Source of the DNA: an uncultured bacterium | GTDB lineage: Bacteria > Actinomycetota > Acidimicrobiia > Spongiisociales > UBA5794 | DNA length: 64,000 nt | Assembly (NCBI GenBank): GCA_963801165.1 | Contig: CAWDDT010000006.1 | Span: forward strand, 576,001-640,000 | Direction of reading: 5' to 3' | Shown: in pieces, positions 7,263 to 19,833 of the stretch | How positions within the stretch are numbered: position 1 is the first letter of the stretch | Layout: each line of letters opens with the position of its first letter | Program-made: the position numbers and the translations under genes | The notes under the pieces: model-generated | The model's database searches: none | What the model was told of the DNA's origin: nothing | What the model saw: the letters and a program-made list of their open reading frames with translations, nothing else

Positions 7263-7577
7263 ATGGTGATGGAAACAGAGGACTGGCGCAACGACGCTAC
7301 CGCGGCCCTCTTCGACGCCGTCGTCTCCCTGGATACCCGGGAGGAAGCGGCGCACTTCTTCCGCGACCTGTGCACCCGGCGTGAGTTGGAGGAGATGTCG
7401 CAGCGGTGGGCCGTCGTCCGCAAGCTCGCCGGCAACCGCCCCTACCGCGAGATCGCATCCGAGACCGGAGTGTCGACCGCCACCATCGTCCGCATCAACC
7501 AATGGCTCCGCCACGGGACCGGCGGCTACCAGCAGATGCTCGATAGGCTCGACCGCCTCAACCAGGAGACACCATGA
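7263..7577 (+). CDS. YerC/YecD family TrpR-related repressor (HisR)
   Basis: FFRDLCT..EL..MSQRW...YREIASETGVSTATIVRINQWL..GTGGY; SD AAGGAGG; first gene of the his operon. Confidence 0.9.
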   Translation: MVMETEDWRNDATAALFDAVVSLDTREEAAHFFRDLCTRRELEEMSQRWAVVRKLAGNRPYREIASETGVSTATIVRINQWLRHGTGGYQQMLDRLDRLNQETP

Positions 7578-8426
7578 CCGTCCGTCTCGCCGTCCCCAAC
7601 AAGGGACGTCTCCAGCAACCAGCGGCAGCCATGCTCGAACAGGGCGGCTTCTCCTACGAGAAGACCGAGCGGGCACTGGCAGTTCCCGTCCGCAACATGG
7701 ACCTCGAGGTGCTCTTCGTGCGCACCGACGACGTCGCCGAGTTCGTTGCAGACGGTGTCGCCGACCTCGGCATCACCGGCATCGACCTGCTCACCGAGGG
7801 TGGCACAGACCTCGAGATCATCGAGAGACTCGGCTTTGGCCACTGCCGGCTCACCTCCGCCGTCCCCAGGGCATCTGACATCCGGTCGCTCGAGGAGCTG
7901 AACGGAGCCCGCGTGGCGACCTCGCACCCGGTCACCACCAAGCGATTCTTCGCAGGGCGTGGCATCGATATCACCATTGTGCCGCTCAGTGGGTCGGTCG
8001 AGGTCGCCCCGAAGCTCGACATCGCCGACGCCGTCGTCGACCTGGTATCTAGCGGCTCCACCATGCTGATCAACGGCCTCCGCCCCCTCGAGGACATCCT
8101 CGAGTCACAGGCCGTACTCGTAGGTCGGCACGGCGCCGCCACCGCCAACGGGACCATCGGCCAGGTCGTCCTGACGATCCAGTCGGTGGTCGCCGCCCGC
8201 CGCAAGCGCTACGTCATGATGAACGCACCGGAGACGGCGGTTGCAGCCATCGAGGCGCTGATCCCGGGCTTCGAGGCGCCTACCGTCATCCCGCTCGCCC
8301 ACGAGGGCATGGTTGCCGTGCACTCGGTCGTCGACTCGAGCGCGATTGGGCCGGGTCCTCCCCGAGCTCAAGGAAGCGGGTGCCAGCGGCATCCTGGTTC
8401 TCCCCATCGACCAACTCATCGCATGA
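7574..8426 (+). CDS. hisG: ATP phosphoribosyltransferase, long form (+1 frameshift near 8347-8355)
   Basis: LAVPNKGRL, ADLGITG.D, LSGSVEVAP, DLVSSGSTM..NGL; canonical C-terminus VLPELKEAGASGILVLPIDQLIA* lies in the +1 frame and ends at TGA 8424-8426. Confidence 0.9.
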
Positions 8427-9727
8427 CCATGGACATACGAACCATCACCCTCGCCGACGTCGATCCCGCCGAGAAACGGGCGTTGCTGCAACGCTCTGCG
8501 GTGCCCGACCCGGAGCTGCGCATCGCGGCAGCGGCCATAGTGAAACGCATCCGGACCGGTGGCGATGAGGCGCTCCGCACCGCCAACGCCGCATACGGAG
8601 GCGGGGCGATCGATGGCACCCTGCGGGTCGACGAGACAACCCTCGCCAGAGCGCTGGTGACCGTTGATCCGGCGGTGCGGATCGCTCTAGAGAAGGCCGC
8701 GACCAACATCCGCACGGCCCACGCCCCGCAGCGACCTGTCGACGGAACCGTGGAGACGGTTCCCGGGGTCCGCATCGACCGACGCTGGACGCCGTTGCGC
8801 CGCATCGGCGTATACGTCCCGGGGGGTCGCGCCGCCTACCCGTCGAGCCTGCTCATGGGCGTCATCCCCGCTCAGGTGGCGGGAGTCCCGGAGATCGCCG
8901 TGACCAGCCCCGCGGATGACAACGGCCAGGTGTCGCAAACGATGCTGGCCGCCGCCCGATTCCTCGGGGTCGACGAGGTATACATCACCGGAGGTGCCCA
9001 GGCGATCGGGGCACTCGCCTACGGCACAGAGACCATCCGCCCGGTCGAGAAGATCGTAGGGCCGGGAAACGCCTGGGTAACGGCCGCCAAGCTCGCCGTG
9101 TACGGCGATGTCGGGGTCGACCTGCCCGCCGGCCCCAGCGAGGCCCTCGTGGTGGCCGACGCCACGGCCGACCCGCGGATCATCGCCGCCGACCTGATGT
9201 GCCAGGCCGAGCATGGTAGGGACTCGCCGGTCGCCCTCGTTACCGACGATGCCGACTTCGCAGCTGCGGTTCTCCAACAGATCGAGGAGCTACTCCCCCG
9301 CCTCGAGCGCAGCGAGATCATCGAGAGCGCACTCGGAGACCATGGGCTCATCGTCATCGTGGACTCCATCGACGAAGCCATCGATTTTGCCAACGAATAT
9401 GCCCCCGAGCACCTCACCGTCCACACGGAGGACTCGGAGAAGGACGCCCTGCGGACCACCGCAGCCGGGTCGGTGTTCGTCGGCCACTGGGCGCCCGAGT
9501 CGGCCGGCGACTACGCCACCGGCGCCAACCACGTGCTCCCCACCGGCGGTCTGGCAGCCGCGTACGGCCCGCTCAGTGTCGAGGATTGCGGCTCGTGGCG
9601 TCAGGTGCAGACCCTGACCGAAGCCGGTCTCGCCGCCCTGCGCCCCACCATCGCCGCCCTGGCCGATGCCGAGGGGCTCACTGCCCACAAGCTCGCCGCC
9701 GAGATTCGATTCGAGGCACCGCGATGA
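8423..9727 (+). CDS. hisD: Histidinol dehydrogenase
   Basis: GVYVPGG, GGAQAIGALAYGT, KIVGPGNAWV..AK, PAGPSE, QAEH, YAPEHL, GDYATGANHVLPT; ATG 8423 overlaps the true hisG stop (ATGA). Confidence 0.95.
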   Translation: MTMDIRTITLADVDPAEKRALLQRSAVPDPELRIAAAAIVKRIRTGGDEALRTANAAYGGGAIDGTLRVDETTLARALVTVDPAVRIALEKAATNIRTAHAPQRPVDGTVETVPGVRIDRRWTPLRRIGVYVPGGRAAYPSSLLMGVIPAQVAGVPEIAVTSPADDNGQVSQTMLAAARFLGVDEVYITGGAQAIGALAYGTETIRPVEKIVGPGNAWVTAAKLAVYGDVGVDLPAGPSEALVVADATADPRIIAADLMCQAEHGRDSPVALVTDDADFAAAVLQQIEELLPRLERSEIIESALGDHGLIVIVDSIDEAIDFANEYAPEHLTVHTEDSEKDALRTTAAGSVFVGHWAPESAGDYATGANHVLPTGGLAAAYGPLSVEDCGSWRQVQTLTEAGLAALRPTIAALADAEGLTAHKLAAEIRFEAPR

Positions 9728-10776
9728 GAGCTCCGAAGTACAAATGGCAGCCGACCACCGCCGAGATCGCCGCCGCCACCGGGCTTCTCCCCGAGGACGT
9801 CGAACGCTTCGACCACAACACCTCCCCGTTCCGCACCGGGTGGGCGGCCGAGGTCGCAGCTACCGCCCTGGCCGATGTCAATGAGTACCCGGGGGCGAGC
9901 TACCGGCCGCTGCGGGAAGCCGCCGCCAAGCTGTGCGGTCTCCAACCCGAGCAGATCGTTCCCGGCGCCGGTGCCGACGAGATGATCCTGCTCAGCGCCC
10001 GCGCCTTCCTCGAGCTCGGTGACACCGCGATAGCGTCCACTCCTACCTACCCGCTGTACGAGATAGCGACCGTCCAGGCAGGGGGGGTGTTCCAGCCGGT
10101 GCCTACCGATCCGCCAAGCTTCAACTACCCGGCAGATGCAGTGATCAGGGCGGCACGGGACGCCGACCTGACATGGATCTGCGCTCCCAGCAACCCCATC
10201 GGCAACGCCGTGGATGATGACGTCGTCGAAGCGGTCATCGCCGCCACAGACGGGCTGGTGGTCATCGATGCCGCTTATGCCGAGTTCGCCGACACCGATT
10301 GGTCGAGCCTGGTCGACCGGCACCACAACGCCGTGGTCCTCCGCACCATGTCGAAGGCGTTCGGCCTTGCCGGCACCCGCGTCGGCTATGCCATGGCTCA
10401 CCCCGACTTGATCACTGAAATCGATGGCATCCGGCCGCCCGGCAGCATCTCGTCGATCTCTGCTGCGATCGCGATTGCAGCGCTGCAGCGGCCGGATGCA
10501 ATGGAGAACACGGTGCGGCAGATCCAGGCGTTGCGGACCGAGCTCAGCGACTCGCTCGCCGGTCTCGGGTTCCGGGTGCTGCCGTCTCAGACCAACTTCG
10601 TGCTGTGCGAGGTGGGGCGCAACGCCCACGAGTTGGCCGGGCAGCTCATGGGCGAGGGGCTGGTAGTCCGCAAATTTCCTGCCGATGGCCCGCTCGCCGG
10701 GTACCTGCGGTTCACCGTCCGCTCTGCCGCCGCCCAGACCCGTTTGATCACGACCATGGAGAGGTACCTGCCATGA
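9724..10776 (+). CDS. hisC: Histidinol-phosphate aminotransferase
   Basis: GAGADE, PSNP.G, DAAYAEF, LRTMSKAFGLAGTRVGY PLP lysine motif; ATGA overlap with hisD. Confidence 0.93.
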   Translation: MRAPKYKWQPTTAEIAAATGLLPEDVERFDHNTSPFRTGWAAEVAATALADVNEYPGASYRPLREAAAKLCGLQPEQIVPGAGADEMILLSARAFLELGDTAIASTPTYPLYEIATVQAGGVFQPVPTDPPSFNYPADAVIRAARDADLTWICAPSNPIGNAVDDDVVEAVIAATDGLVVIDAAYAEFADTDWSSLVDRHHNAVVLRTMSKAFGLAGTRVGYAMAHPDLITEIDGIRPPGSISSISAAIAIAALQRPDAMENTVRQIQALRTELSDSLAGLGFRVLPSQTNFVLCEVGRNAHELAGQLMGEGLVVRKFPADGPLAGYLRFTVRSAAAQTRLITTMERYLP

Positions 10777-11357
10777 CCAGAACCGCGTCTCTCGAACGCA
10801 AGACCCGCGAGACCGACGTCCGTGTCACCATCGACCTCGACGGGACCGGGGAGGTCTCGGTGCGCACGGGTGTCGGTTTCTACGACCACATGCTCACGGC
10901 CTTCGGCTGCCACGGCCTGTTCGACCTCTCCGTCGAGACCGAGGGTGATCTCGAGGTAGACGAGCACCACACCGTCGAGGACACCGCACTCGTCCTCGGA
11001 TCGGCGATCGCCGAGGCACTGGGTGACCGGACCGGTATCCGCCGCTACGGGTCGGCCACGATCCCCATGGACGAGGCGGTTGCCACCGCGGTCGTCGACA
11101 TCGGGGGCAGACCCTATGCGGTTGTCGATCTGCCGTTCGCCACCGAGCGAATGGGGACGCTGGGTACGCAGATGGTTCCCCACGCCCTCGAGGCGTTTGC
11201 CAGGACATCGGGGTGCACGCTCCACGTCACTGCAACGGGCAACAACGACCACCACATCGCAGAAGCCGCCTTCAAGGCGCTCGCCTATGCCGTTCGAGCC
11301 GCGGTCGAGATCGACCCGCGCCGCCGCGGTCTCGCCTCGACCAAGGGATCGACGTGA
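10773..11357 (+). CDS. hisB: Imidazoleglycerol-phosphate dehydratase
   Basis: RKTRETD, GFYDHML, DEHHTVED, PMDEA, NDHHIAEAAFKA, STKG. Confidence 0.96.
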   Translation: MTRTASLERKTRETDVRVTIDLDGTGEVSVRTGVGFYDHMLTAFGCHGLFDLSVETEGDLEVDEHHTVEDTALVLGSAIAEALGDRTGIRRYGSATIPMDEAVATAVVDIGGRPYAVVDLPFATERMGTLGTQMVPHALEAFARTSGCTLHVTATGNNDHHIAEAAFKALAYAVRAAVEIDPRRRGLASTKGST

Positions 11358-11968
11358 CCCGGGTGGTGGTGATCGACCACGGTGCGGGCAACCTGGTGTC
11401 GATCGCCCAGGGGCTGAGCCGGGCGGGGGCAGAAGTCGATGTCGTAGACAACCCCAATGACATCGGAGACGCCGCCGGGATCGTGCTCCCCGGCGTCGGC
11501 ACCACCGGAGCTGCCATGGGCCGCTTGCTGGCGGCTGACCTCGTCAAGCCACTTCGGGAGTGGGGCAGACCGCTGCTCGGCATCTGTGTCGGGCTGCAGT
11601 TGTTCTTCGACCACTCCGAAGAGGACGGTACCGATGCGCTCGGCCTCATTCCGGGCCGGGTCAAGCTGCTAGAGGGGGCACCGCTGCTGCCCCACATCGG
11701 ATGGAACGACGTCTCGTTTGTCGACGACCCACTCTTCGCCGGGGTCGCTCCTGGATCGACGTTCTACTTCGTCCACTCCTTCGCCGGCGTACCCGACGAC
11801 GAGGGTGTCGTGATCGCCCGTACCGAGTACGGCAAGCCGTTCGTTGCCGCCGCCCGCACCGGGAACCGGGTCGGAGTGCAGTTCCACCCCGAGCGGTCGG
11901 GCGCCGCCGGGCTGCGGATGCTGGCCAACTTCGTCGCCGAGTGCGGGGAGGCACGACGTGCTGCGTAG
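11354..11968 (+). CDS. hisH: IGP synthase glutaminase subunit
   Basis: [40 protein letters not shown]. Confidence 0.96.
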
Positions 11969-12722
11969 ACGGGTGATCCCGTGTCTCGATGTGACCAACG
12001 GCCGCGTGGTCAAAGGCGTCAACTTCGTGAACCTGACCGACGAAGGCGACCCGGTCGAACTGGCCGAGCGCTACGTCCGGGAGGGCGCCGACGAGATCTG
12101 CTTTCTCGACATCACCGCGTCGAGCGATAACAGGGACACGATGCTCGACGTGGTTCGTCGCACTGCCGAGCACGTCTTCGTCCCGCTCACCGTCGGTGGC
12201 GGGGTCAGGAGCGCGGCCGACATGAGAGCCGCGTTGCGGGCCGGGGCGGACAAGGTCTCCGTAAACACAGCAGCGGTGCTCGATCCGGATCTCATCAACC
12301 AGTGTGCCGCCGCGTTCGGCTCGCAATGCGTCGTACTCGCCGTCGACGCCAAGCAGGTCGGTGAGGGCGCATGGGAGGTGTACATCCATGGTGGGCGCAC
12401 CCCGACCGGCAAGGACGCCGTCGCCTGGATCATTGATGCGGTCGCCCGCGGCGCGGGTGAGGTACTGCTCACATCGATGGACCGCGACGGGACGAAGGAC
12501 GGGTACGACCTCGAGCTACTCGAGGCCGTGCGGGCCGCGGTCTCGGTGCCCGTCATCGCCTCGGGTGGCGCAGGGACGATCGACCACTGTGTCGCCGCCC
12601 TCCAGCCGGGCCGCGCCGATGCGGTGCTGGCGGCGTCGATCTTCCATCGCAAGGAGATCGAGATCGAGGACCTCAAGGAGGGCCTGGCTGCGGCGGGGAT
12701 CCCGGCGAGGACCAAACGATGA
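11958..12722 (+). CDS. hisF: IGP synthase cyclase subunit
   Basis: [60 protein letters not shown]. Confidence 0.96.
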
Positions 12723-13345
12723 GGCCGCTCCGCTCCCCAAGCCCTCTGCACTTCGACAGAGACGGTCTCATCGTCGGGGTGGTGCAGGATGCCAGCACGG
12801 GTGCGGTGCTCATGGTCGGCTACCTCAATGAGGAAAGCCTCCGGCTCACCAAAGAGACGGGGAGGGTCTGGTTTTGGAGCCGTTCCCGTAGCGAGCTGTG
12901 GGAGAAGGGAGCCACAAGCGGCAACTATCTGAACATGGTCTCGATCCACGAGGACTGTGACGGGGATGCCCTTCTCATCGAGGCAATCCCCGCAGGCCCC
13001 ACCTGTCACACCGGAGCTACGAGCTGCTTCAGCGCCGGGCCGCCCGGCCAGGGCTTCGTGCAGCTCGAAAAACTGTGGGCGACCATCACAGATCGTATCG
13101 CCAATCCGACCCCGGAGTCCTACACCGCCCGGTTGGCCGAGGCCGGCACCGACCTCACCGGCAGAAAGCTGGTCGAGGAAGCCACCGAGACGTTGATCGC
13201 CGCCAAGAACCACGCCAGCGGCGACACTGAGGTACGGGTGATCGAGGAGGCAGCCGACGTCGTCTATCACCTACTGGCGCTGCTGGCGGAACGGAATATC
13301 CCCGCATCGGCCGTGGTTGCCGAGTTGGCAAGCCGAGCCAAGTAG
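12719..13345 (+). CDS. hisIE: Bifunctional PR-AMP cyclohydrolase / PR-ATP pyrophosphatase
   Basis: [34 protein letters not shown], then SYT..L...[16 protein letters not shown]. Confidence 0.94.
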
Positions 13346-13367
13346 CCGGGACGATCCTCACATCACC

Positions 13368-13850
13368 ATGCGCCGCATCATCCCCATCGCCGCCGTGATG
13401 CTGCTCGCCGCCGCTTGCAGCAGCCAGCACACTGACCCGGCCGACATCCCCGATCTCCCCGCAGTCACGACCGAAGAGCTGCAGCAGGTCCTCTCCGACT
13501 CGACACAGCCGACGGTGGTCAACGTGTGGGCGTCGTGGTGTATCCCCTGCCGATCCGAGGCGCCACTGCTCGAACAGGCGGCACGCACTGCCACGGACGT
13601 CCGTTTCATCGGGCTCAACGTCCAGGACGACCAGGACGGTGCCAGGGGTTTCATCGCACAGTTCTTCCCCGATGCAGCTATCGATCACCTCTTCGACCCG
13701 GCGGGTGAGATCCCCGTGAGCCTTGGTGGTACCCGCGGCGTCCCGATGACGTTCTTCTACGCACCGGGCGGTCAGCTGGTCGACTTGCATGCCGGCGTAA
13801 TCGACGAGCGCACCCTCGCCCTCCAGATCGACGAGATCCGCTCTCGCTGA
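13368..13850 (+). CDS. TlpA/ResA-like thioredoxin lipoprotein (Cys form)
   Basis: Lipobox LAAAC; VVNVWASWCIPCRSEAP; GVPMTFF. Confidence 0.88.
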   Translation: MRRIIPIAAVMLLAAACSSQHTDPADIPDLPAVTTEELQQVLSDSTQPTVVNVWASWCIPCRSEAPLLEQAARTATDVRFIGLNVQDDQDGARGFIAQFFPDAAIDHLFDPAGEIPVSLGGTRGVPMTFFYAPGGQLVDLHAGVIDERTLALQIDEIRSR

Positions 13851-14554
13851 TGGAGTTCACCCTGCTCGCCGCAGTGCTCATCGGGGTTCTCCCCGTCTAC
13901 CTCGTGCTCCGCTGGGATGGGCATCGCTGCGGCACCGGTGTCCGTGATCTCTGGGACATTGCGTTGAGTGCTGCGGTGATCGGGCTGTTCGTGGGGAGAT
14001 TGGCGGCGATGATCTCGGCAGGCGTCAGCCCGATCGCTCACCCCGCCGACATACTCATAGTGCGCGGTGGGGTCGCCACTGGCCCGGCCACCACTGCCGC
14101 CCTGGCGGCGGTCGTCTGGATGGGAAGACGGGACCTGTGGTCGGTGCTCGACGGTCTCGCCCCGGCCGCCGTCGCCGGGCTGGGAGGCTGGCATGCGGGA
14201 TGCCTCGCCCGCGGCGCCTGCCTGGGCACACCGAGCGATCTGCCCTGGGCCGTCGCCCAGGGTGGAAGCGCCATCACCAGACATCCCGTGGAGATCTATG
14301 CCGCGCTGGCTCTGATCGCGGCCGCCGTGACGCTCGTGCTGGTGCGCCCACGTCTCGAGGCTCGACCGGGATCTGCCACAGGTATCGCGCTGTTCGTCGC
14401 CGCCGCCGTCCGGCTGGCCACCGAGCCGATGCGGCCGGCGCTCGGCTCCGGACCGGTGGGCTGGTATTCGGTGGGTGTGCTCGCCGGGGCGAGTCTGGTC
14501 CTGTGGGCGCTCCGACCTGGCCGCAAGCCGGCGCCTGATCCGGACACGGGATAG
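13850..14554 (+). CDS. Prolipoprotein diacylglyceryl transferase (Lgt)-like membrane protein
   Basis: GLFVGRL, LDGLAP, GCL.RG.C.G.PSDLPWAV, RHPVEIY, RLATE motifs; coupled to the TlpA gene. Confidence 0.7.
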   Translation: MEFTLLAAVLIGVLPVYLVLRWDGHRCGTGVRDLWDIALSAAVIGLFVGRLAAMISAGVSPIAHPADILIVRGGVATGPATTAALAAVVWMGRRDLWSVLDGLAPAAVAGLGGWHAGCLARGACLGTPSDLPWAVAQGGSAITRHPVEIYAALALIAAAVTLVLVRPRLEARPGSATGIALFVAAAVRLATEPMRPALGSGPVGWYSVGVLAGASLVLWALRPGRKPAPDPDTG

Positions 14555-14644: not shown

Positions 14645-15424
14645 TTGTCCGATCATCTCACTGTTCGCATCCCGAAACGCACCTTGCAGGCAGGACTCAT
14701 CATCGCGATCGTCGTTGCGGTCATGGCACCAATCGCGGCTCACGCCATGGGTGGAAAGTTCACCGATGACGACACGTCGATCTTCGAATCCAATATCGAA
14801 TGGCTCGCCGGCGCCGGCGTGACCTTGGGCTGCAACCCGCCCACCAACGACCAATTCTGCCCGAACGACAACGTGAGCCGCGGCCAGATGGCGGCGTTCA
14901 TGCAGCGCTTCGCGCAATATCTCGGCGCCGAGGACGGCCAGGTCTCGAAGGCCGACGACGCCGAGACGCTCGATGGGCTCGCCCCGAGTGCATTCCTGCG
15001 CAACGACGTCATTGAGATCGCACAGGCGAGCGGATGGGTACCGAACGCAGGAACCGGCACCAGCGTAGAGTACAACGTCACTGCGGATGTACTCGGTGGC
15101 GGCGGAAACCAACTCGGGCTGATCACGCCGACCACCGTAGGGATCGACACGTACTATCTCGATAGTGTCGAGGTCTGCTACGGCGGAGCGTTCTCAGGCG
15201 GAACGATCACAGCGTCACGGGTGTACAGGTCAACGCCCTCCGGCAGCAGTGGTGCCATCGTGGACGACAACACGTCCCGGACAACGGTCTTCCCCGCAAC
15301 CGAGTGCTACCAGCTCAGTGTCGCAGATTCAACCGCGCCTTCCGGCTCCACGTACCACCTCTTCCTCAACGTCACCGGGGATGTCAACGTCGCGAGTGTC
15401 ACGAGCAGCTACCGAACACATTGA
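14645..15424 (+). CDS. Secreted single-SLH-domain surface protein 1
   Basis: Signal peptide; FTDD...IEWL..AGVTLGCNPP..D.FCP.DNVSRGQMAAFMQR SLH motif; AETLDG neck; SD AAGGAG 7 nt before TTG. Confidence 0.82.
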   Translation: MSDHLTVRIPKRTLQAGLIIAIVVAVMAPIAAHAMGGKFTDDDTSIFESNIEWLAGAGVTLGCNPPTNDQFCPNDNVSRGQMAAFMQRFAQYLGAEDGQVSKADDAETLDGLAPSAFLRNDVIEIAQASGWVPNAGTGTSVEYNVTADVLGGGGNQLGLITPTTVGIDTYYLDSVEVCYGGAFSGGTITASRVYRSTPSGSSGAIVDDNTSRTTVFPATECYQLSVADSTAPSGSTYHLFLNVTGDVNVASVTSSYRTH

Positions 15425-15632
15425 TGATCGGATGCAGCTGCCAACCCCACCGTTCCCAGAGAAGCGCTCGAGAATCCACTTCCTAGGCCCGGGATACTTC
15501 GGGTAGGTTCGGATACTGCCGGACATCAGAGGGCAGGAATCAAGGTTCGAGCTGGTAGGCCTGGTGGGGTGTATCAGGACGTGCTGAACGCGCTCTCGTA
15601 AACGTCCGCCTGATATGGGAAGGAGACCCATC

Positions 15633-16289
15633 TTGGAACTGAACGCACGTACCGGACGCCGTTGGACCAGACTTGCTCTGGCCTTCGCCGTCCTTCTAGC
15701 CGTTTCGGCACCGGTCGCAGTATTCGCTGCAGGAGGCCATTTCACCGACGACGACACCTCGGTGTTCGAATCTCACATCAATTGGATGGCAGACGCCGGC
15801 ATCACGCTCGGCTGTAACCCTCCCGGTAATGATCATTACTGCCCTGACGACAACGTGACGCGCGGTGAGATGGCGGCGTTCATGCACCGGTTTTCTCAGT
15901 ATCTCGACGCCGAGGACGGCACCCCCGCCCAGGCCGACAACGCCGACACACTCGACGGCCTCGACTCGACCGATCTGCAGCCGATGTGGGCGTTGGTCAA
16001 GGGCTCCGACGGCTCGATCATCGCTCAATCGGGCGGCATCTCGGCGACCCGCGGCTACACGGGTGGTCAGTATGTCGACTTCGGCGCAGACGTAAGCGGC
16101 CACGGGCTCGTGGCAACGATGCAGTGGGGGCACTCCGGCTTCATCTCGACCGCCATTTGTGGTGGCAACACGGACGAGACCGTCAACTGCGTAGTCGGGG
16201 ACAACACCACCGACTGGGTGTTCGTACAAACGCTCGACGAGGCAGGATCAGGAGTCGACGCCGACTACTACATCACCGTGCTCCCGTAG
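15633..16289 (+). CDS. Secreted single-SLH-domain surface protein 2
   Basis: Same SLH motif plus NADTLDG; SD AAGGAG 7 nt before in-frame TTG 15633. Confidence 0.82.
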   Translation: MELNARTGRRWTRLALAFAVLLAVSAPVAVFAAGGHFTDDDTSVFESHINWMADAGITLGCNPPGNDHYCPDDNVTRGEMAAFMHRFSQYLDAEDGTPAQADNADTLDGLDSTDLQPMWALVKGSDGSIIAQSGGISATRGYTGGQYVDFGADVSGHGLVATMQWGHSGFISTAICGGNTDETVNCVVGDNTTDWVFVQTLDEAGSGVDADYYITVLP

Positions 16290-16332
16290 CATCGACTCTC
16301 TGAGTCAACCGACTTCGGCCGATTCAGCCTGA

Positions 16333-16361
16333 GAGGGCGCCGGGCATATCCCGGCGCCCTC
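16333..16361 (+). terminator. GC-rich hairpin after SLH gene 2
   Basis: GAGGGCGCCGGG-CATAT-CCCGGCGCCCTC, 12-bp stem, no U-tract. Confidence 0.6.
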
Positions 16362-16573
16362 GTCGCGTCCGCGTAGCACGCGACGAATTCCGCGCGTGCT
16401 TCTCATCAGCGAAGCGCAAACATGACCCTTGCAGCTGCAGATTCGTGTAGGTTCTGAGGAGCTGGATACGAAGGGCGGGGCCTGAGTTCGGCTGGTAGTC
16501 CCGATGGGTGTATCAGCGCGTCAGTTCGCGCTCTCATCACGTGTATCCGCGCGACATGGGAAGGAGACCCATC

Positions 16574-17419
16574 TTGGACACGCACGCTCGCAAAGGGCTT
16601 CGTTGGACCAGACTGTTGTTGGCCCTCGCCGTCCTCTTCGCCGTTTCGGCGCCAATAGCGGTTTTCGCAGCAGGAGGCCACTTCACCGACGACGACACTT
16701 CTGCATTCGAATCGCACATCAACTGGATGGCGGACGCCGGCATCACGCTCGGCTGCAACCCTCCTGCCAACGACCTTTACTGCCCTGACGACAACGTGAC
16801 CCGTGGCCAGATGGCGGCCTTCATGCACCGGTTCGCGCAGTACCTGGACGCCGAAGATGGCACACCAGCCGAGGCCGACCATGCCGCCGACGCCGACACG
16901 CTTGACGGTGAGTCTGCCACCTACTACACCAATCCCGCCTGGGGCGTGGCCTGCGACGCAGGATCCTGCTCCGATCTGGCCATGAATACGCCCCTCCAGA
17001 TGCTGGAGATTCCCGTGACGGCACCGATGGATGGGTACGTAACCGTGGCATCCAACTACTCGGGGACTTCTGCGTCGGCCACTGCGGCGTATTTCCAGAT
17101 CTGGGCCGAGGTGGACACCAGCCCCGGCTGCACCAGCTGGTTCCTTGTACCCGGCGAATCGGTACCCGGCACTTGGGGCGTCGGGAGCATTGCCGCCGAT
17201 ATCGATTTCGGCAACCTGGCGACAACCGTGGTGACCGCGGTTGGTGCGGGCGATCACACACTGCGCCTTTGTGCGATCGCTACCCAGGCGGTCACCTCAT
17301 ACCAGGGTTCGCTTGCCATTACCTTCAGCGCCGGCGGATCAGCTACGCCCGCTGCATCTCTTGATGCCGCGGACTACTCGTACCTGGAGGATGCCTTCGC
17401 TGTGGAATCGAGCAACTAG
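16574..17419 (+). CDS. Secreted single-SLH-domain surface protein 3
   Basis: Same SLH motif plus DADTLDG; SD AAGGAG 7 nt before in-frame TTG 16574; N-terminal part is close to gene 2 at DNA level. Confidence 0.82.
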   Translation: MDTHARKGLRWTRLLLALAVLFAVSAPIAVFAAGGHFTDDDTSAFESHINWMADAGITLGCNPPANDLYCPDDNVTRGQMAAFMHRFAQYLDAEDGTPAEADHAADADTLDGESATYYTNPAWGVACDAGSCSDLAMNTPLQMLEIPVTAPMDGYVTVASNYSGTSASATAAYFQIWAEVDTSPGCTSWFLVPGESVPGTWGVGSIAADIDFGNLATTVVTAVGAGDHTLRLCAIATQAVTSYQGSLAITFSAGGSATPAASLDAADYSYLEDAFAVESSN

Positions 17420-17447
17420 CTCAACCGGCCCGTGCTTGTAGTGAATG

Positions 17448-17473
17448 GTTGAGGGGCCGCCAGGCCCCTCAAC
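17448..17473. terminator. Hairpin between convergent genes
   Basis: GTTGAGGGGCC-GCCA-GGCCCCTCAAC, 11-bp stem. Confidence 0.6.
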
Positions 17474-18041
17474 TCTGTGCAAGGAATTCCAACCTACTCC
17501 GGAGCTCGGGCGCGTCCAGCGCGCCGTACCAGCTGTCGACGACGACACCATCCTTGATCAGAACGGTGGCTGGCTGGCCCGGGATGCCGTAGAGCTGCCA
17601 GATCGAGTCGTCGAGACCCCAACGCAGGTTGTCCGAGAACAGGTGCGCCGCCTCGTCAGCCGTCGACTGATAGTCGGAACGACCGGCCACGGCGAGGAAG
17701 GTGATGCTGTCCTGGTAATCCGACGCAACTGCGTCGACGACGGGAAGTTCCGCCTGACAGACCGGTCACCACTCCGCCCAGAACACCATGTAGATGGGTT
17801 TCTGGGCTTCCGAGAGGACGAAGGTCGACCCATCGCTGAGCTCCAGCTCGAAGTCCGGGGCAGCCGGCCCGTCGGGTGCCTTGGTCGTGGCCGCGGTCGT
17901 CTCCGGAACTGCCGTGGTGGTCGTTTGGGCGCCAACAACTGTTGTGGTTGCCGCACCGTCTGCGGACAGGGTCGCATTCTCGGCACCGCCACAGGCGCCA
18001 AGCAACAGCACGAGGACACAGGCCAACAGGATCTTCCGCAT
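17469..18041 (-). CDS. Selenocysteine-containing TlpA/redoxin-family lipoprotein (UxxC), 190 aa
   Basis: ORFs 17766-18041 and 17469-17690 are one frame separated only by TGA: lipobox LLGAC, Thr-rich linker, APDFELEL, VFWAEW-TGA-PVCQAELP, GIPGQPATVLI. Confidence 0.85.
17720..17737 (-). promoter_or_regulatory. Putative bacterial SECIS hairpin
   Basis: mRNA UCGACGC-AGUU-GCGUCGG; loop begins 36 nt after the UGA and has GU at loop positions 2-3. Confidence 0.6.
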
Positions 18042-18117
18042 CCCCCGACAGTAAACGCGCCGCCCCGTCGCCGGGATCGTTCCCGCCGGTGTTCACGGGA
18101 CTTTCACAATCGAGCCG

Positions 18118-19833
18118 CTAGTCGCCCGCGGCTGCGGCTGCCCTCGCTGCCTCTTCCTGCATCAGCTCCCGGCGAAGCACCTTGCCGACAAAAGTCTTCG
18201 GCAGATCGTTGCGGAATTCGATGCTGCGGGGAACCTTGAACCGGGCCAGCCGCTCCCGGCAGAACTCGATCAGCTCGGTCTCGGTGAGGGTCTGCCCCTC
18301 ATCGAGCACCACGAACGCCTTCACCCGCTGATCTGTGCCACCGACCGGCACACCGATGACCCCGGCGTCGACCACTGCAGGGTGCTCGAAGAGCGCGTCC
18401 TCGACCTCGCGGGGGTAGACGTTGAACCCGCCCGACGCCAGGATCATGTCCTTTTTGCGGTCGACTACCGCAAACCGGCCGTCCTCGTCCATGACGGCGA
18501 TATCTCCGGTATGCAGCCAGACGGTACCGTCATCGGCAGTGCGAAGAACGTCCTCGTTCGCCTCGGGCATATTCCAGTAGCCCTGCATGACCTGGGGGCC
18601 GCTGACACACAAAACCCCCCGCTCTCCCACGCCCATCACCTTGGTCTCGGTGTCCTCATCGACAATACGGCAATCGGTACTCGGCATAGGAAAACCAATG
18701 GTCCCGGTGCGGGCGGTGCCGTCGAGCGGCCCGGCATGAGTCACCGGGGAGGCCTCGCTGAGACCGTACCCCTCCACGAGAACCCCACCGGTTGCGGTCT
18801 CGAAGCCTCGTTTCACCTCGGGTGGCAACGCAGCCGCACCAGATATGCACCAGTTGATCGACGAAACGTCGTACTTGCCACTCTTGACGTGACGATGCCG
18901 GGTGATCGCCGCATAAAGGGTGGGGACGCCGGGAAAGTAGGTGGGGCGATGAGCGTCGATGACCTTGAGCAAGCCGCCGAGATCACGGGCGTCGGGGATC
19001 AGCACCTGCTTGTGCCCGGCCGAGATCGAATGGTTCATCGACACGGTGACCGAGTAGCTGTGCGTGAGCGGCAACGCAGTCAGCATCACCTCCCGCCCCG
19101 GAACCGCTTCAGGGCTCCACGCACGCACCTGGTGGGCATTCGCCATCAGATTGGCGTGCGAGAGTATCGCCCCCTTGGGCACCCCGGTCGTTCCCCCGGT
19201 GTACATCAGCATCGCAACGTCGTCGCCGGTCACCGGCACGGGTGTGGGCGCCTCATCGCTGAGAACCGACGACCACTCATACGTGTTCTCGTCGTCGCCG
19301 ACATCGACCCGGTGCCCGTCTTTCTTCTCCCGGAGCAGAGTGAACAGCAGTTTGAGCGAGCCCTTGAAGTACTCCTTGATGTTGGTCACGATGACGTGCT
19401 CTAGAGGAGTCTGGTCGCGTACCGACCGCACCTTTTCGTAGTTCATGGACACCACGATGGCGAAGCGGCTCGCCGCGTCCCTCGCCTGATGGGCGAACTC
19501 GGCAGCGGTGTACAGCGGGTTGGAGGGAACGGCGATGGCGCCGCATCTCCAGACTGCCTCGTAGGCGATCACCAGCTGCGGGCAGTTGGGCATGTACAGG
19601 GATACCCGGTCGCCCTTCTCCAGCCCGAGACGTTGTAGACCGGCAGCAAGCCGATCTACCAGGTCGTCAAGCTCGCGATAGGTGAGGCCGTGGTCGAAAA
19701 AGACGAGAGCCTCGTTGTCGGGGTATGTTCGGGCCGACGTGCGCAGCAGGCCGTCGAGCGGGCCATCTGGCCAAGTCACCCTGGCAGGGACACCGGTCTG
19801 GTAGAGCCGGTGCCAGGGCCGGGTATCAGCCAT
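18118..19833 (-). CDS. Long-chain fatty acid-CoA ligase
   Basis: YTGGTTGVPKGA, EGYGLSE, GPQVMQGYW, WLHTGD, DRKKD, LPKT.VGKVLRR. Confidence 0.93.
   Translation of the reverse strand: MADTRPWHRLYQTGVPARVTWPDGPLDGLLRTSARTYPDNEALVFFDHGLTYRELDDLVDRLAAGLQRLGLEKGDRVSLYMPNCPQLVIAYEAVWRCGAIAVPSNPLYTAAEFAHQARDAASRFAIVVSMNYEKVRSVRDQTPLEHVIVTNIKEYFKGSLKLLFTLLREKKDGHRVDVGDDENTYEWSSVLSDEAPTPVPVTGDDVAMLMYTGGTTGVPKGAILSHANLMANAHQVRAWSPEAVPGREVMLTALPLTHSYSVTVSMNHSISAGHKQVLIPDARDLGGLLKVIDAHRPTYFPGVPTLYAAITRHRHVKSGKYDVSSINWCISGAAALPPEVKRGFETATGGVLVEGYGLSEASPVTHAGPLDGTARTGTIGFPMPSTDCRIVDEDTETKVMGVGERGVLCVSGPQVMQGYWNMPEANEDVLRTADDGTVWLHTGDIAVMDEDGRFAVVDRKKDMILASGGFNVYPREVEDALFEHPAVVDAGVIGVPVGGTDQRVKAFVVLDEGQTLTETELIEFCRERLARFKVPRSIEFRNDLPKTFVGKVLRRELMQEEAARAAAAAGD

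Follow-up and report, generated by a model that had tools for sequence, protein, structure and literature searches.

A probable selenoprotein gene for a TlpA-type lipoprotein and its candidate selenocysteine insertion hairpins in an order of Acidimicrobiia

The window analysed here is a 64,000-nt stretch from the genome of an uncultured bacterium belonging, as the initial annotation had it, to an actinobacterial lineage, namely the class Acidimicrobiia. The element in question is a gene on its reverse strand, at 18041-17469, which is very probably a genuine selenoprotein gene: the UGA at codon 92 would be read as selenocysteine (Sec) under the direction of an mRNA hairpin, and the product would be an exported, lipid-anchored protein with a thioredoxin fold. 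The gene belongs to an order-wide selenoprotein family that is overlooked by gene callers.

The interrupted gene and its order-wide conservation

In the list of open reading frames (ORFs) obtained with translation table 11, the gene appears as two pieces, 17766..18041 (91 aa) and 17469..17690 (73 aa), because an in-frame TGA interrupts the frame. The initial annotation had joined these pieces, and coordinates and translation agree with it: 18041-17469 (-) is a single frame with an ATG at 18041, 190 codons and a terminal stop, which is a TGA at 17471-17469. The sole in-frame TGA is codon 92, at 17768-17766, and the read-through product has the context ...YMVFWAEW-U-PVCQAELPVV.... With UGA92 taken as Sec, the whole gene (17469..18041) encodes, all on the reverse strand, a putative signal peptide with a lipobox (17991..18041; MRKILLACVLVLLLGAC, Cys17 being the would-be lipidated residue), a low-complexity linker rich in Thr, Ala and Pro (17868..17990, residues 18 to ~58), whose length and sequence vary among orthologs, and a predicted thioredoxin-fold domain of the TlpA/ResA/DsbE type (17472..17867, residues ~59-190), assigned with Pfam, AlphaFold2 and Foldseek. 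The active site U-P-V-C is encoded at 17757..17768, followed by the remnant of a hairpin, H1 (17739..17754), and by a second hairpin, H2 (17720..17737).

A first set of orthologs was drawn from 61 genomes of the same order, the window's own included; the tallies of TGA matches and of SelA in this set comprise two unpublished genomes (G039 and G050), on which no claim rests. In 48 of the 61 genomes, 53 best matches to the read-through protein were found (E <= 3.9e-24), each with exactly one TGA, one of them carrying a TAG in addition. The weaker paralog matches in these genomes (30-40% identity) are mostly stop-free. Codon 92 was then aligned at 110 loci, 30 from the 61-genome set and 80 from public records of Acidimicrobiia/Actinomycetota metagenome-assembled genomes: it is TGA at 109 loci and TGC at one or, with 16 duplicates removed, TGA in 93 and TGC in one of 94 distinct sequences. 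As for the whole class, a sample searched at E <= 1e-22 comprised 28 other genomes of this order, 25 of which have the family, and 92 genomes from other orders, none of which does; 28 of the 30 matches have the TGA, and two have no stop. The conservation of the TGA is clearly beyond chance.

Both sides of the TGA are intact, as initially annotated, and the downstream half is conserved along with it. The motif F-W-A-E-W-U-x-x-C-x-R-E-L-P-V is nearly invariant across orthologs. Among 71 aligned sequences, 19 columns are invariant, many of them beyond the UGA and including C95, E98, P100 and P157; around the active site, W88, A89, E90, W91, U/C92 and C95 do not vary, nor do Q156 and P157, the latter a candidate for the proline of a cis-Pro loop facing the active site. 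Homologs in the PDB align their CxxC at the UGA, which places it at the WCxxC position of TlpA/ResA proteins, where the initial annotation had located it. The alternation of TGA and TGC that it had proposed to look for was also seen: three orthologs with available DNA (L070, G151 and G114) have TGC in the UGA column, and the Cys forms known at the protein level (P0002-P0006) read WAEWCP[TV]C, with the Cys aligned to the UGA.

Three studies contribute one independent DNA run each, and all three runs read positions 17766-17768 without difference, as TGA and not as TGC or TGT. A 151-nt metatranscriptome contig covers 17713-17863, including the TGA and both hairpins, with no differences, and is a weak hint that the gene is transcribed. 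Metagenome runs of salt-marsh, soil and marine-sediment origin, drawn from 16 studies, contain sequences near-identical to 17400-18100; as four runs were aligned, this is no more than a lead on the habitat range.

Concerning the Sec machinery, selA, selB, selC (tRNA-Sec) and selD, which the initial annotation had named as the genes to search for, are all present in the window's genome (4.55 Mb, 13 contigs, 98% complete). The tRNA-Sec scores 72.7 bits and is called by ARAGORN as tRNA-SeC with the anticodon UCA; SelA (358 bits) has a SelB winged-helix domain as its immediate neighbour, and SelD (397 bits) has one in-frame TGA of its own. SelA was found in 57 of the 61 genomes of the order and in 46 of the 48 with the TGA form, the two exceptions (G004 and G047) being weighed below. 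As for the Cys forms, neither G151 (95% complete) nor G114 (97% complete) gave a SelA or SelB match; no tRNA-Sec was found in G114, and G151 gave only a match of 50 bits, at which score ARAGORN had recognised no tRNA in the genome of the window. Since SelA and SelB matches are missing from both, the conversion of Sec to Cys accompanies the loss of Sec genes in the two Cys-form genomes checked.

Hairpins downstream of the UGA

Hairpin positions are numbered with the T of the TGA as position 1. H1, the family-wide element, pairs positions 13-19 with 25-31 around a loop at 20-24, with 16 nt between the UGA and the loop; its typical sequence is CGACGGG-AGUUG-CCCGUCG. A stem of at least 5 bp is present in 85 of the 94 distinct sequences (5-7 bp, (CGA)CGGG-AGUUG-CCCG(UCG)), and in the ortholog L020 the hairpin folds at -12.3 kcal/mol. 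H1 overlaps the conserved peptide R-E-L-P-V and, judging from codon usage, its codons are fixed beyond the protein's need: every one of the 88 Arg codons at +5 is CGG and 88 of the 94 sequences have CCC at Pro+8, with the adjacent Arg+4 codons varying (CGA 35, CGG 15, AGA 4, AGG 2). The outer pair, columns 17-33, covaries, being G-C in 58 sequences, A-U in 21, C-G in three and G-U in two. In 93 sequences, covariation scored over the two-hairpin structure amounts to 0.157, vs. 0.096 for column shuffles (none of 500 being as high) and at most 0.091 for slid structures. In the window gene, Arg+5 is replaced by Ala (GCG), leaving a shifted 5-bp remnant of H1, GGCGG-AACUUC-CCGUC, at 17754-17739, 16 nt after the UGA; its folding energy is -7.2 kcal/mol, and neither of its first two loop bases is a G.

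H2 pairs positions 32-38 with 43-49 around a loop at 39-42, 35 nt separating the UGA from the loop. In the window gene it is UCGACGC-AGUU-GCGUCGG, at 17737-17720, with a 7-bp stem, an AGUU loop whose first base is the 36th nt after the UGA, and an isolated fold of -10.5 kcal/mol. This is the hairpin described in the initial annotation as resembling a selenocysteine insertion sequence (SECIS). The bacterial SECIS (bSECIS) model of Zhang & Gladyshev (2005), as quoted in the Fig. 2 legend of PMC13188914, comprises a loop of 3-9 nt, a stem of 4-16 bp, a G in the first two loop bases, a spacing of 16-37 nt and a minimum free energy <= -7.5. H2 agrees with every one of these values, its G being at loop position 2, and the H1 remnant departs from two. 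That part of the annotation therefore stands; what it missed is H1, 16 nt after the UGA, which is conserved in most orthologs and decayed here.

Taking H2 as present when a stem of at least 6 bp carries an AGUU or GGUC loop, 24 of the 93 Sec sequences have it. H1 alone, with an AGUU-type loop, was found in 66 of the 93, H2 alone in 22 and both in two. Among the 22, 16 keep an H1 stem with a non-AGUU loop and six, the window gene included, have lost the H1 register. The other three sequences are near misses: L016 (H2 with one mismatch), L097 (a 4-bp H1) and L113 (H1 with an internal mismatch). The three Cys forms with DNA have neither hairpin in register, the stems of L070, G151 and G114 being reduced to 2, 2 and 3 bp for H1 and to 0, 0 and 1 bp for H2, and they have lost the Arg-CGG at +5. 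On a quick maximum-likelihood tree, built with the SECIS columns left out, H2 falls into three supported clades, one of which holds every grade: H1 only, both hairpins, an H1 relic with H2, and H2 only.

The codons of H2 were counted in sequences grouped by the peptide DAVA[SA] only, as grouping by hairpin class would be circular. In the 25 sequences so defined, the facing synonymous third positions are C/G in seven, U/A in 16, U/G in two and C/A in none. Ser+15 is TCG in 24 of 24 sequences. At Ala+14, neither GCC nor GCT occurs among H2 carriers, and non-carriers have GCC there 18 times in 39.

Four further genes of the same genome offer a semi-independent comparison, first loop bases being given in the same numbering. 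The selD gene (G000:C9:522433-523359; SHGAG-U-ACKLG) has the hairpin GGCGCA-GGUUC-UGCGCC, its first loop base at ~36 and the loop 32 nt after the UGA; since it combines an in-frame TGA with a downstream hairpin, SelD would itself be a selenoprotein in this organism. The gene for the formate dehydrogenase alpha subunit, fdhA (G000:C4:40813-42963; NRT-U-HAPSV; Molybdopterin, 231 bits), has GUCGUC-GGUCU-GGCGAC with the first loop base at 22, and that for a peroxiredoxin with Sec at the peroxidatic position (G000:C1:48353-49141; FTFV-U-ATE; AhpC-TSA, 139 bits) has UGUCGGC-GGUC-GCCGACA with the first loop base at 21; both are GGUC-type hairpins, 17-18 nt after the UGA. The fourth is a second copy of the Sec lipoprotein family (G000:C3:11696-12478; WAEWUPVCRAELPN), 55% identical to the window protein, with an intact H2 (UCGAUGC-AGUU-GCAUCGG, first loop base at 39) and a decayed H1. 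A second copy also exists in other genomes of the genus (G014 and G005). All four hairpins have xGUy loops, a feature confined to H2 in the window gene; in position and loop, H2 resembles the selD hairpin. A genome-wide scan for a TGA followed by a hairpin, which does not amount to a complete selenoproteome, proved too noisy, with 3,375 raw candidates and 69 left after filtering. Pfam was consulted for 18 of them, and two, fdhA and the peroxiredoxin, are real selenoproteins; the remaining 16 are adjacent genes in one frame or non-coding frames and were rejected.

As a hairpin alone, H2 is no more than chance would provide. Its weight rests on conservation, on compensatory changes, on its loss in Cys forms and on its likeness to the SECIS hairpins of the same genome. 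Given that the gene is a selenoprotein gene, H2 is probably its functional SECIS, because the loops of the same genome read xGUy and short and long spacings are both in use there. A further reading, which we put forward tentatively and to which slightly less than an even chance is given, is that the SECIS moved within this one orthologous family, an ancestral H1 (16 nt, AGUUG) having been replaced in some clades, the window's included, by H2 (35 nt, AGUU or GGUC). The grades found today would then be surviving intermediates, from H1 only through both hairpins and H2 with a non-AGUU H1 stem to H2 only.

Several observations weigh against these two readings. Of 100,000 random positions in this genome (64% GC), 9,505 are followed at 16-37 nt by a generic hairpin, defined by a stem of at least 7 bp and a G as first or second loop base (127 when the loop is [AG]GU[UC]), and the 76-nt fold around the hairpins is undistinctive (z = -1.0). 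The xGUy rule was formulated after this genome's other genes had been viewed. The tree requires a minimum of four changes between H1 only and H2 only, with two independent pairs on supported branches; since there are only two such pairs, no valid probability can be attached to the exclusivity of H1 and H2, and a Fisher test (p 5e-16), which is invalid for related sequences, was not used. The peptide [IV]DAVA[SA]DY is fully confounded with H2, all 25 sequences with it being H2 carriers or L016, and the codon pattern is therefore the only RNA-level signal for H2.

The most serious alternative accepts a real selenoprotein with a SECIS other than H2 alone: that role would fall to the H1 remnant (17754-17739) or to a composite element formed by both hairpins, with H2 an accessory or a clade-specific by-product of the peptide DAVASDY. 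H1 is the family-wide hairpin, its 16-nt spacing is near the 17 and 18 nt of fdhA and the peroxiredoxin, the window gene keeps a 5-bp version of it, and H2 coincides wholly with one peptide motif; moreover, the 16 H2 carriers that retain both stems often have an AGCUU loop on H1, which still passes the generic definition. Yet in six sequences with H2 the H1 stem is gone in register, selD uses a long spacing in the same genome, and Ser+15 and Ala+14 show the codon bias described above. This alternative is considered unlikely, albeit with a weight that should not be neglected, and H2 is retained as the probable SECIS of the window gene.

Two null results were obtained around the gene: an Rfam search of 17400-18100 (E <= 1) gave no match, and a promoter and terminator scan of 17300-18300 gave no site. 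An 8-bp GC-rich stem-loop, GAGGGGCC-UGGC-GGCCCCUC, lies at 17451-17470 (-), between two convergent genes, and shares bases with the Sec gene's stop codon; it lacks a U-run, and the terminator scan did not report it.

Predicted protein and genomic surroundings

Residues 58-182 match the Pfam families AhpC-TSA (42.4 bits, cut-off 26), Thioredoxin (36.8 bits, cut-off 23.5) and Redoxin (36.7 bits, cut-off 26.6). An AlphaFold2 model, computed from the 71-row ortholog alignment with C standing for U, has a pLDDT (predicted local distance difference test) of 95-98 over residues 61-190 and low values for the signal peptide and for the linker (56-74 in the latter); residue 92 directly precedes a helix at 93-106. 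The best solved structures found by Foldseek, with target-normalised TM (template modelling) scores, are DsbF of Mycobacterium tuberculosis (3ios; 32% identity, TM 0.86), ResA of Bacillus subtilis (TM 0.89-0.91), DsbE-like proteins and the pneumococcal Etrx1/Etrx2; by sequence, the best PDB matches are 4hqs (E 4.8e-15) and 3ios (E 7.1e-14). None of the NCBIfam models attained its cut-off, the specific ones scoring as follows: ResA (NF002854, 44.9 vs. 170 bits), TlpA (NF047696, 28.9 vs. 230), DsbE (TIGR00385, 22.4 vs. 123) and WAxxUGC (NF041054, 24.7 vs. 300). From the model, a thioredoxin fold of the TlpA/ResA/DsbE type is predicted with confidence.

The N-terminus is basic and hydrophobic and ends in the lipobox LGAC, with Cys17. 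A lipobox-like sequence, under the loose pattern [LVIMAF][ASTVIGLMF][GAS]C, precedes the Sec codon in 82 of the 88 orthologs that are complete upstream. Lgt is encoded in the window itself, 3 kb from the Sec gene (13850-14554, 67 bits), and Lsp elsewhere in the genome (111 bits). The product is thus a predicted lipobox lipoprotein, and the description of the gene as coding for a TlpA-like lipoprotein, given by the initial annotation, finds support on both counts.

On the forward strand, the his operon (7574-13345) is followed by a gene for a Cys-type thioredoxin-fold lipoprotein (13317-13850; MRRIIPIAAVMLLAAAC...WASWCIPC), 29% identical to the Sec protein, by lgt and by three paralogous ORFs (14645-17419). 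On the reverse strand, the Sec gene lies next to an acyl-CoA synthetase-like gene (20070-18118) and trpD (20860-19826). Among the 93 other distinct loci, trpD was found in the flanks of at least 55, lgt of at least 41 and the Cys-type thioredoxin gene of at least 39, these counts being lower bounds as many flanks are short. In the usual order, trpD and the Sec gene are on one strand and converge on lgt and the Cys-type gene. The gene for the Cys-type lipoprotein, which has the lipobox LAAC and the active site WCIPC, is immediately followed by lgt, and the two neighbour the Sec gene at about 40 of the 93 other loci. As for the three paralogous ORFs (14645-15424, 15615-16289 and 16508-17419, +), their only Pfam matches are to S-layer-homology domains and are sub-threshold (18.8-19.9 bits vs. 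a cut-off of 20.8); relatives are present in ten of the 93 other loci. At 7574-9727 (+), a 717-aa open frame contains HisG, HisG_C and histidinol dehydrogenase domains and represents either a fusion or two in-frame genes without an intervening stop.

Interpretation and comparison with known systems

As a selenoprotein gene, 17469..18041 would function as follows. The ribosome would decode UGA92 as selenocysteine by means of SelB and Sec-tRNA(Sec), directed by a hairpin just 3' of the UGA, most likely H2 with its AGUU loop in the window gene. The product would be exported and anchored through lipidated Cys17 on the outer face of the cytoplasmic membrane, the flexible Thr/Ala/Pro linker holding the thioredoxin domain away from it. 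Sec would be the attacking residue of the U-x-x-C in a domain of the TlpA/ResA/DsbE type, and on this basis disulfide or selenenylsulfide exchange with a partner outside the cytoplasm would be expected of the protein.

A number of points speak on the other side. From the sequences we infer the insertion of Sec at UGA92, as well as the identity of the hairpin bound by SelB, the lipidation and the redox role, and with respect to Sec insertion this counts against the reading. The metatranscriptome contig could stem from DNA in the library. Two genomes with the TGA form break the pattern of co-occurrence with SelA: G004 (80% complete) has tRNA-Sec and SelB with no SelA match, and G047, the sole near-complete genome to do so (98%), has two TGA-form copies and a tRNA-Sec (80 bits), 721 nt from a contig end, with no SelA or SelB match. 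Assembly gaps are a plausible but unproven explanation for the absence of SelA and SelB in G047 and of SelA in G004. Finally, no CcdA, ResB/ResC or Msr gene is adjacent to the Sec gene, and the only DsbD_TM match of the genome is below the cut-off (25.1 vs. 27.1 bits); for these reasons the gene context points neither to a particular redox partner nor to a direction, as reductant or oxidant, in which the Sec protein would work. Two specific roles considered, cytochrome c maturation of the ResA type and Msr repair of the Etrx type, are unsupported by that context.

Low-level readthrough of UGA occurs in bacteria, and the codon could in principle be read without selenium, through a code reassigned to Trp or Gly or through near-cognate insertion of Cys or Trp. 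This is highly improbable here. TGA also ends the Sec gene itself and 14 of the 29 orthologs of the first set for which a terminal stop is present, and UGA is consequently a stop in this organism; besides, the genome has tRNA-Sec, SelA, SelB and SelD, the UGA is aligned with the catalytic Cys, the genomes without SelA and SelB matches carry TGC, and the hairpins vanish together with the UGA. A TlpA-like pseudogene with a nonsense mutation, or a sequencing error, would fit the splitting of the gene by standard gene calling and the short length of most database relatives, but is already contradicted, to the point of being negligible, by the same TGA at 109 of 110 loci across an order, by a downstream half that is conserved and not neutral, with its 19 invariant columns, and by the agreement of three independent runs.

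With 17469..18041 thus taken as a selenoprotein gene, the state of the databases can be considered. In a database of 5.8 billion proteins, 17 relatives were found at E <= 1e-10, five of them full-length Cys forms; the other 12 are pieces, 106-176 aa long, that account for 26-48% of the query. Each of the four inspected (P0007, P0010, P0014 and P0018) stops exactly at ...FWAEW; three bear the name "hypothetical protein" and one that of the SCO1 family. Through such short, mis-annotated entries, annotation loses what would be an extracytoplasmic redox enzyme of common salt-marsh, soil and sediment bacteria. The family adds an order-wide member to the prokaryotic selenoproteome, in a class for which descriptions of Sec use have only recently begun to appear, and it provides naturally occurring Sec and Cys counterparts that go with SelA and SelB being present or lost. 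With the SECIS at either of two positions among its members, it also makes the rules of SECIS spacing directly testable. Should the SECIS indeed have moved, which would be the most novel feature of the family, these genes would be a natural series for the tolerance of SelB and the ribosome to SECIS spacing, and their product the exported selenoprotein that marks one acidimicrobial order.

That UxxC selenoproteins of the thioredoxin fold exist, as the initial annotation had stated, is established in PMC13188914, which catalogues a "Prx-like thiol:disulfide oxidoreductase" (PF00578, UxxC) and a "Redoxin family protein"; UxxC thioredoxin-fold or TlpA-type selenoproteins are for this reason a known kind, which lessens the novelty of the present gene. 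A description of the present family was not found in the literature on Acidimicrobiia, TlpA-type or Prx-like selenoproteins, supplementary tables of which may list it, and the accessible parts of PMC1794560 and PMC5029168 mention no selenoprotein of this type in Acidimicrobiia. For another order of the class, the accessible part of a preprint on Actinomarina (bioRxiv 10.64898/2026.04.03.716425) describes Sec machinery and mostly uncharacterised selenoproteins; the word "thioredoxin" is absent from its text.

The closest known selenoproteins are the Prx-like thiol:disulfide oxidoreductases and thiol:disulfide interchange proteins (Kryukov & Gladyshev 2004, as cited in PMC13188914; PMC1794560), which, as far as these sources describe them, likewise have a thioredoxin fold (PF00578/PF08534/PF13098), Sec as the first residue of UxxC and Cys homologs. 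Going by such descriptions, the two are set apart by their distribution, the Prx-like proteins being recorded in Deltaproteobacteria and Clostridia (PMC1794560) and the Sec lipoprotein, within the class sample, in a single order of Acidimicrobiia, and, on the side of the latter, by the fixed motif FWAEW-U-xxC-x-R-E-L-P-V and by its lipoprotein nature. The ResA-like WAxxUGC selenoproteins (NF041054) share W-A-x-x-U with it; however, the Sec lipoprotein is not a member of that family, because it scores far under the cut-off of 300 bits, the model has 354 positions and the motif there is UGC, not UxxC.

Concerning Cys enzymes of the same fold, DsbF (3ios) and DsbE/Mpt53 (1lu4) of M. tuberculosis are also actinobacterial and have the active-site context WAPWCPTCQGEAPVV vs. 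WAEWUPVCQAELPVV, with Cys and not Sec. These two proteins are reported to show oxidase-like behaviour. ResA of B. subtilis (1su9, 1st9) has the same fold, with a TM score of ~0.9, but is a Cys enzyme, and no ResB/ResC stands beside the Sec gene. Etrx1 and Etrx2 of Streptococcus pneumoniae (4hqs, 2yp6, 4hqz), exposed thioredoxin lipoproteins according to their entry titles, are Cys enzymes as well, and no Msr gene stands next to the Sec gene. As regards the RNA, H2 and the H1 of the orthologs both fit the bSECIS model as it is quoted in PMC13188914, and the hairpins of the Sec lipoprotein family lie at either end of its 16-37 nt range.

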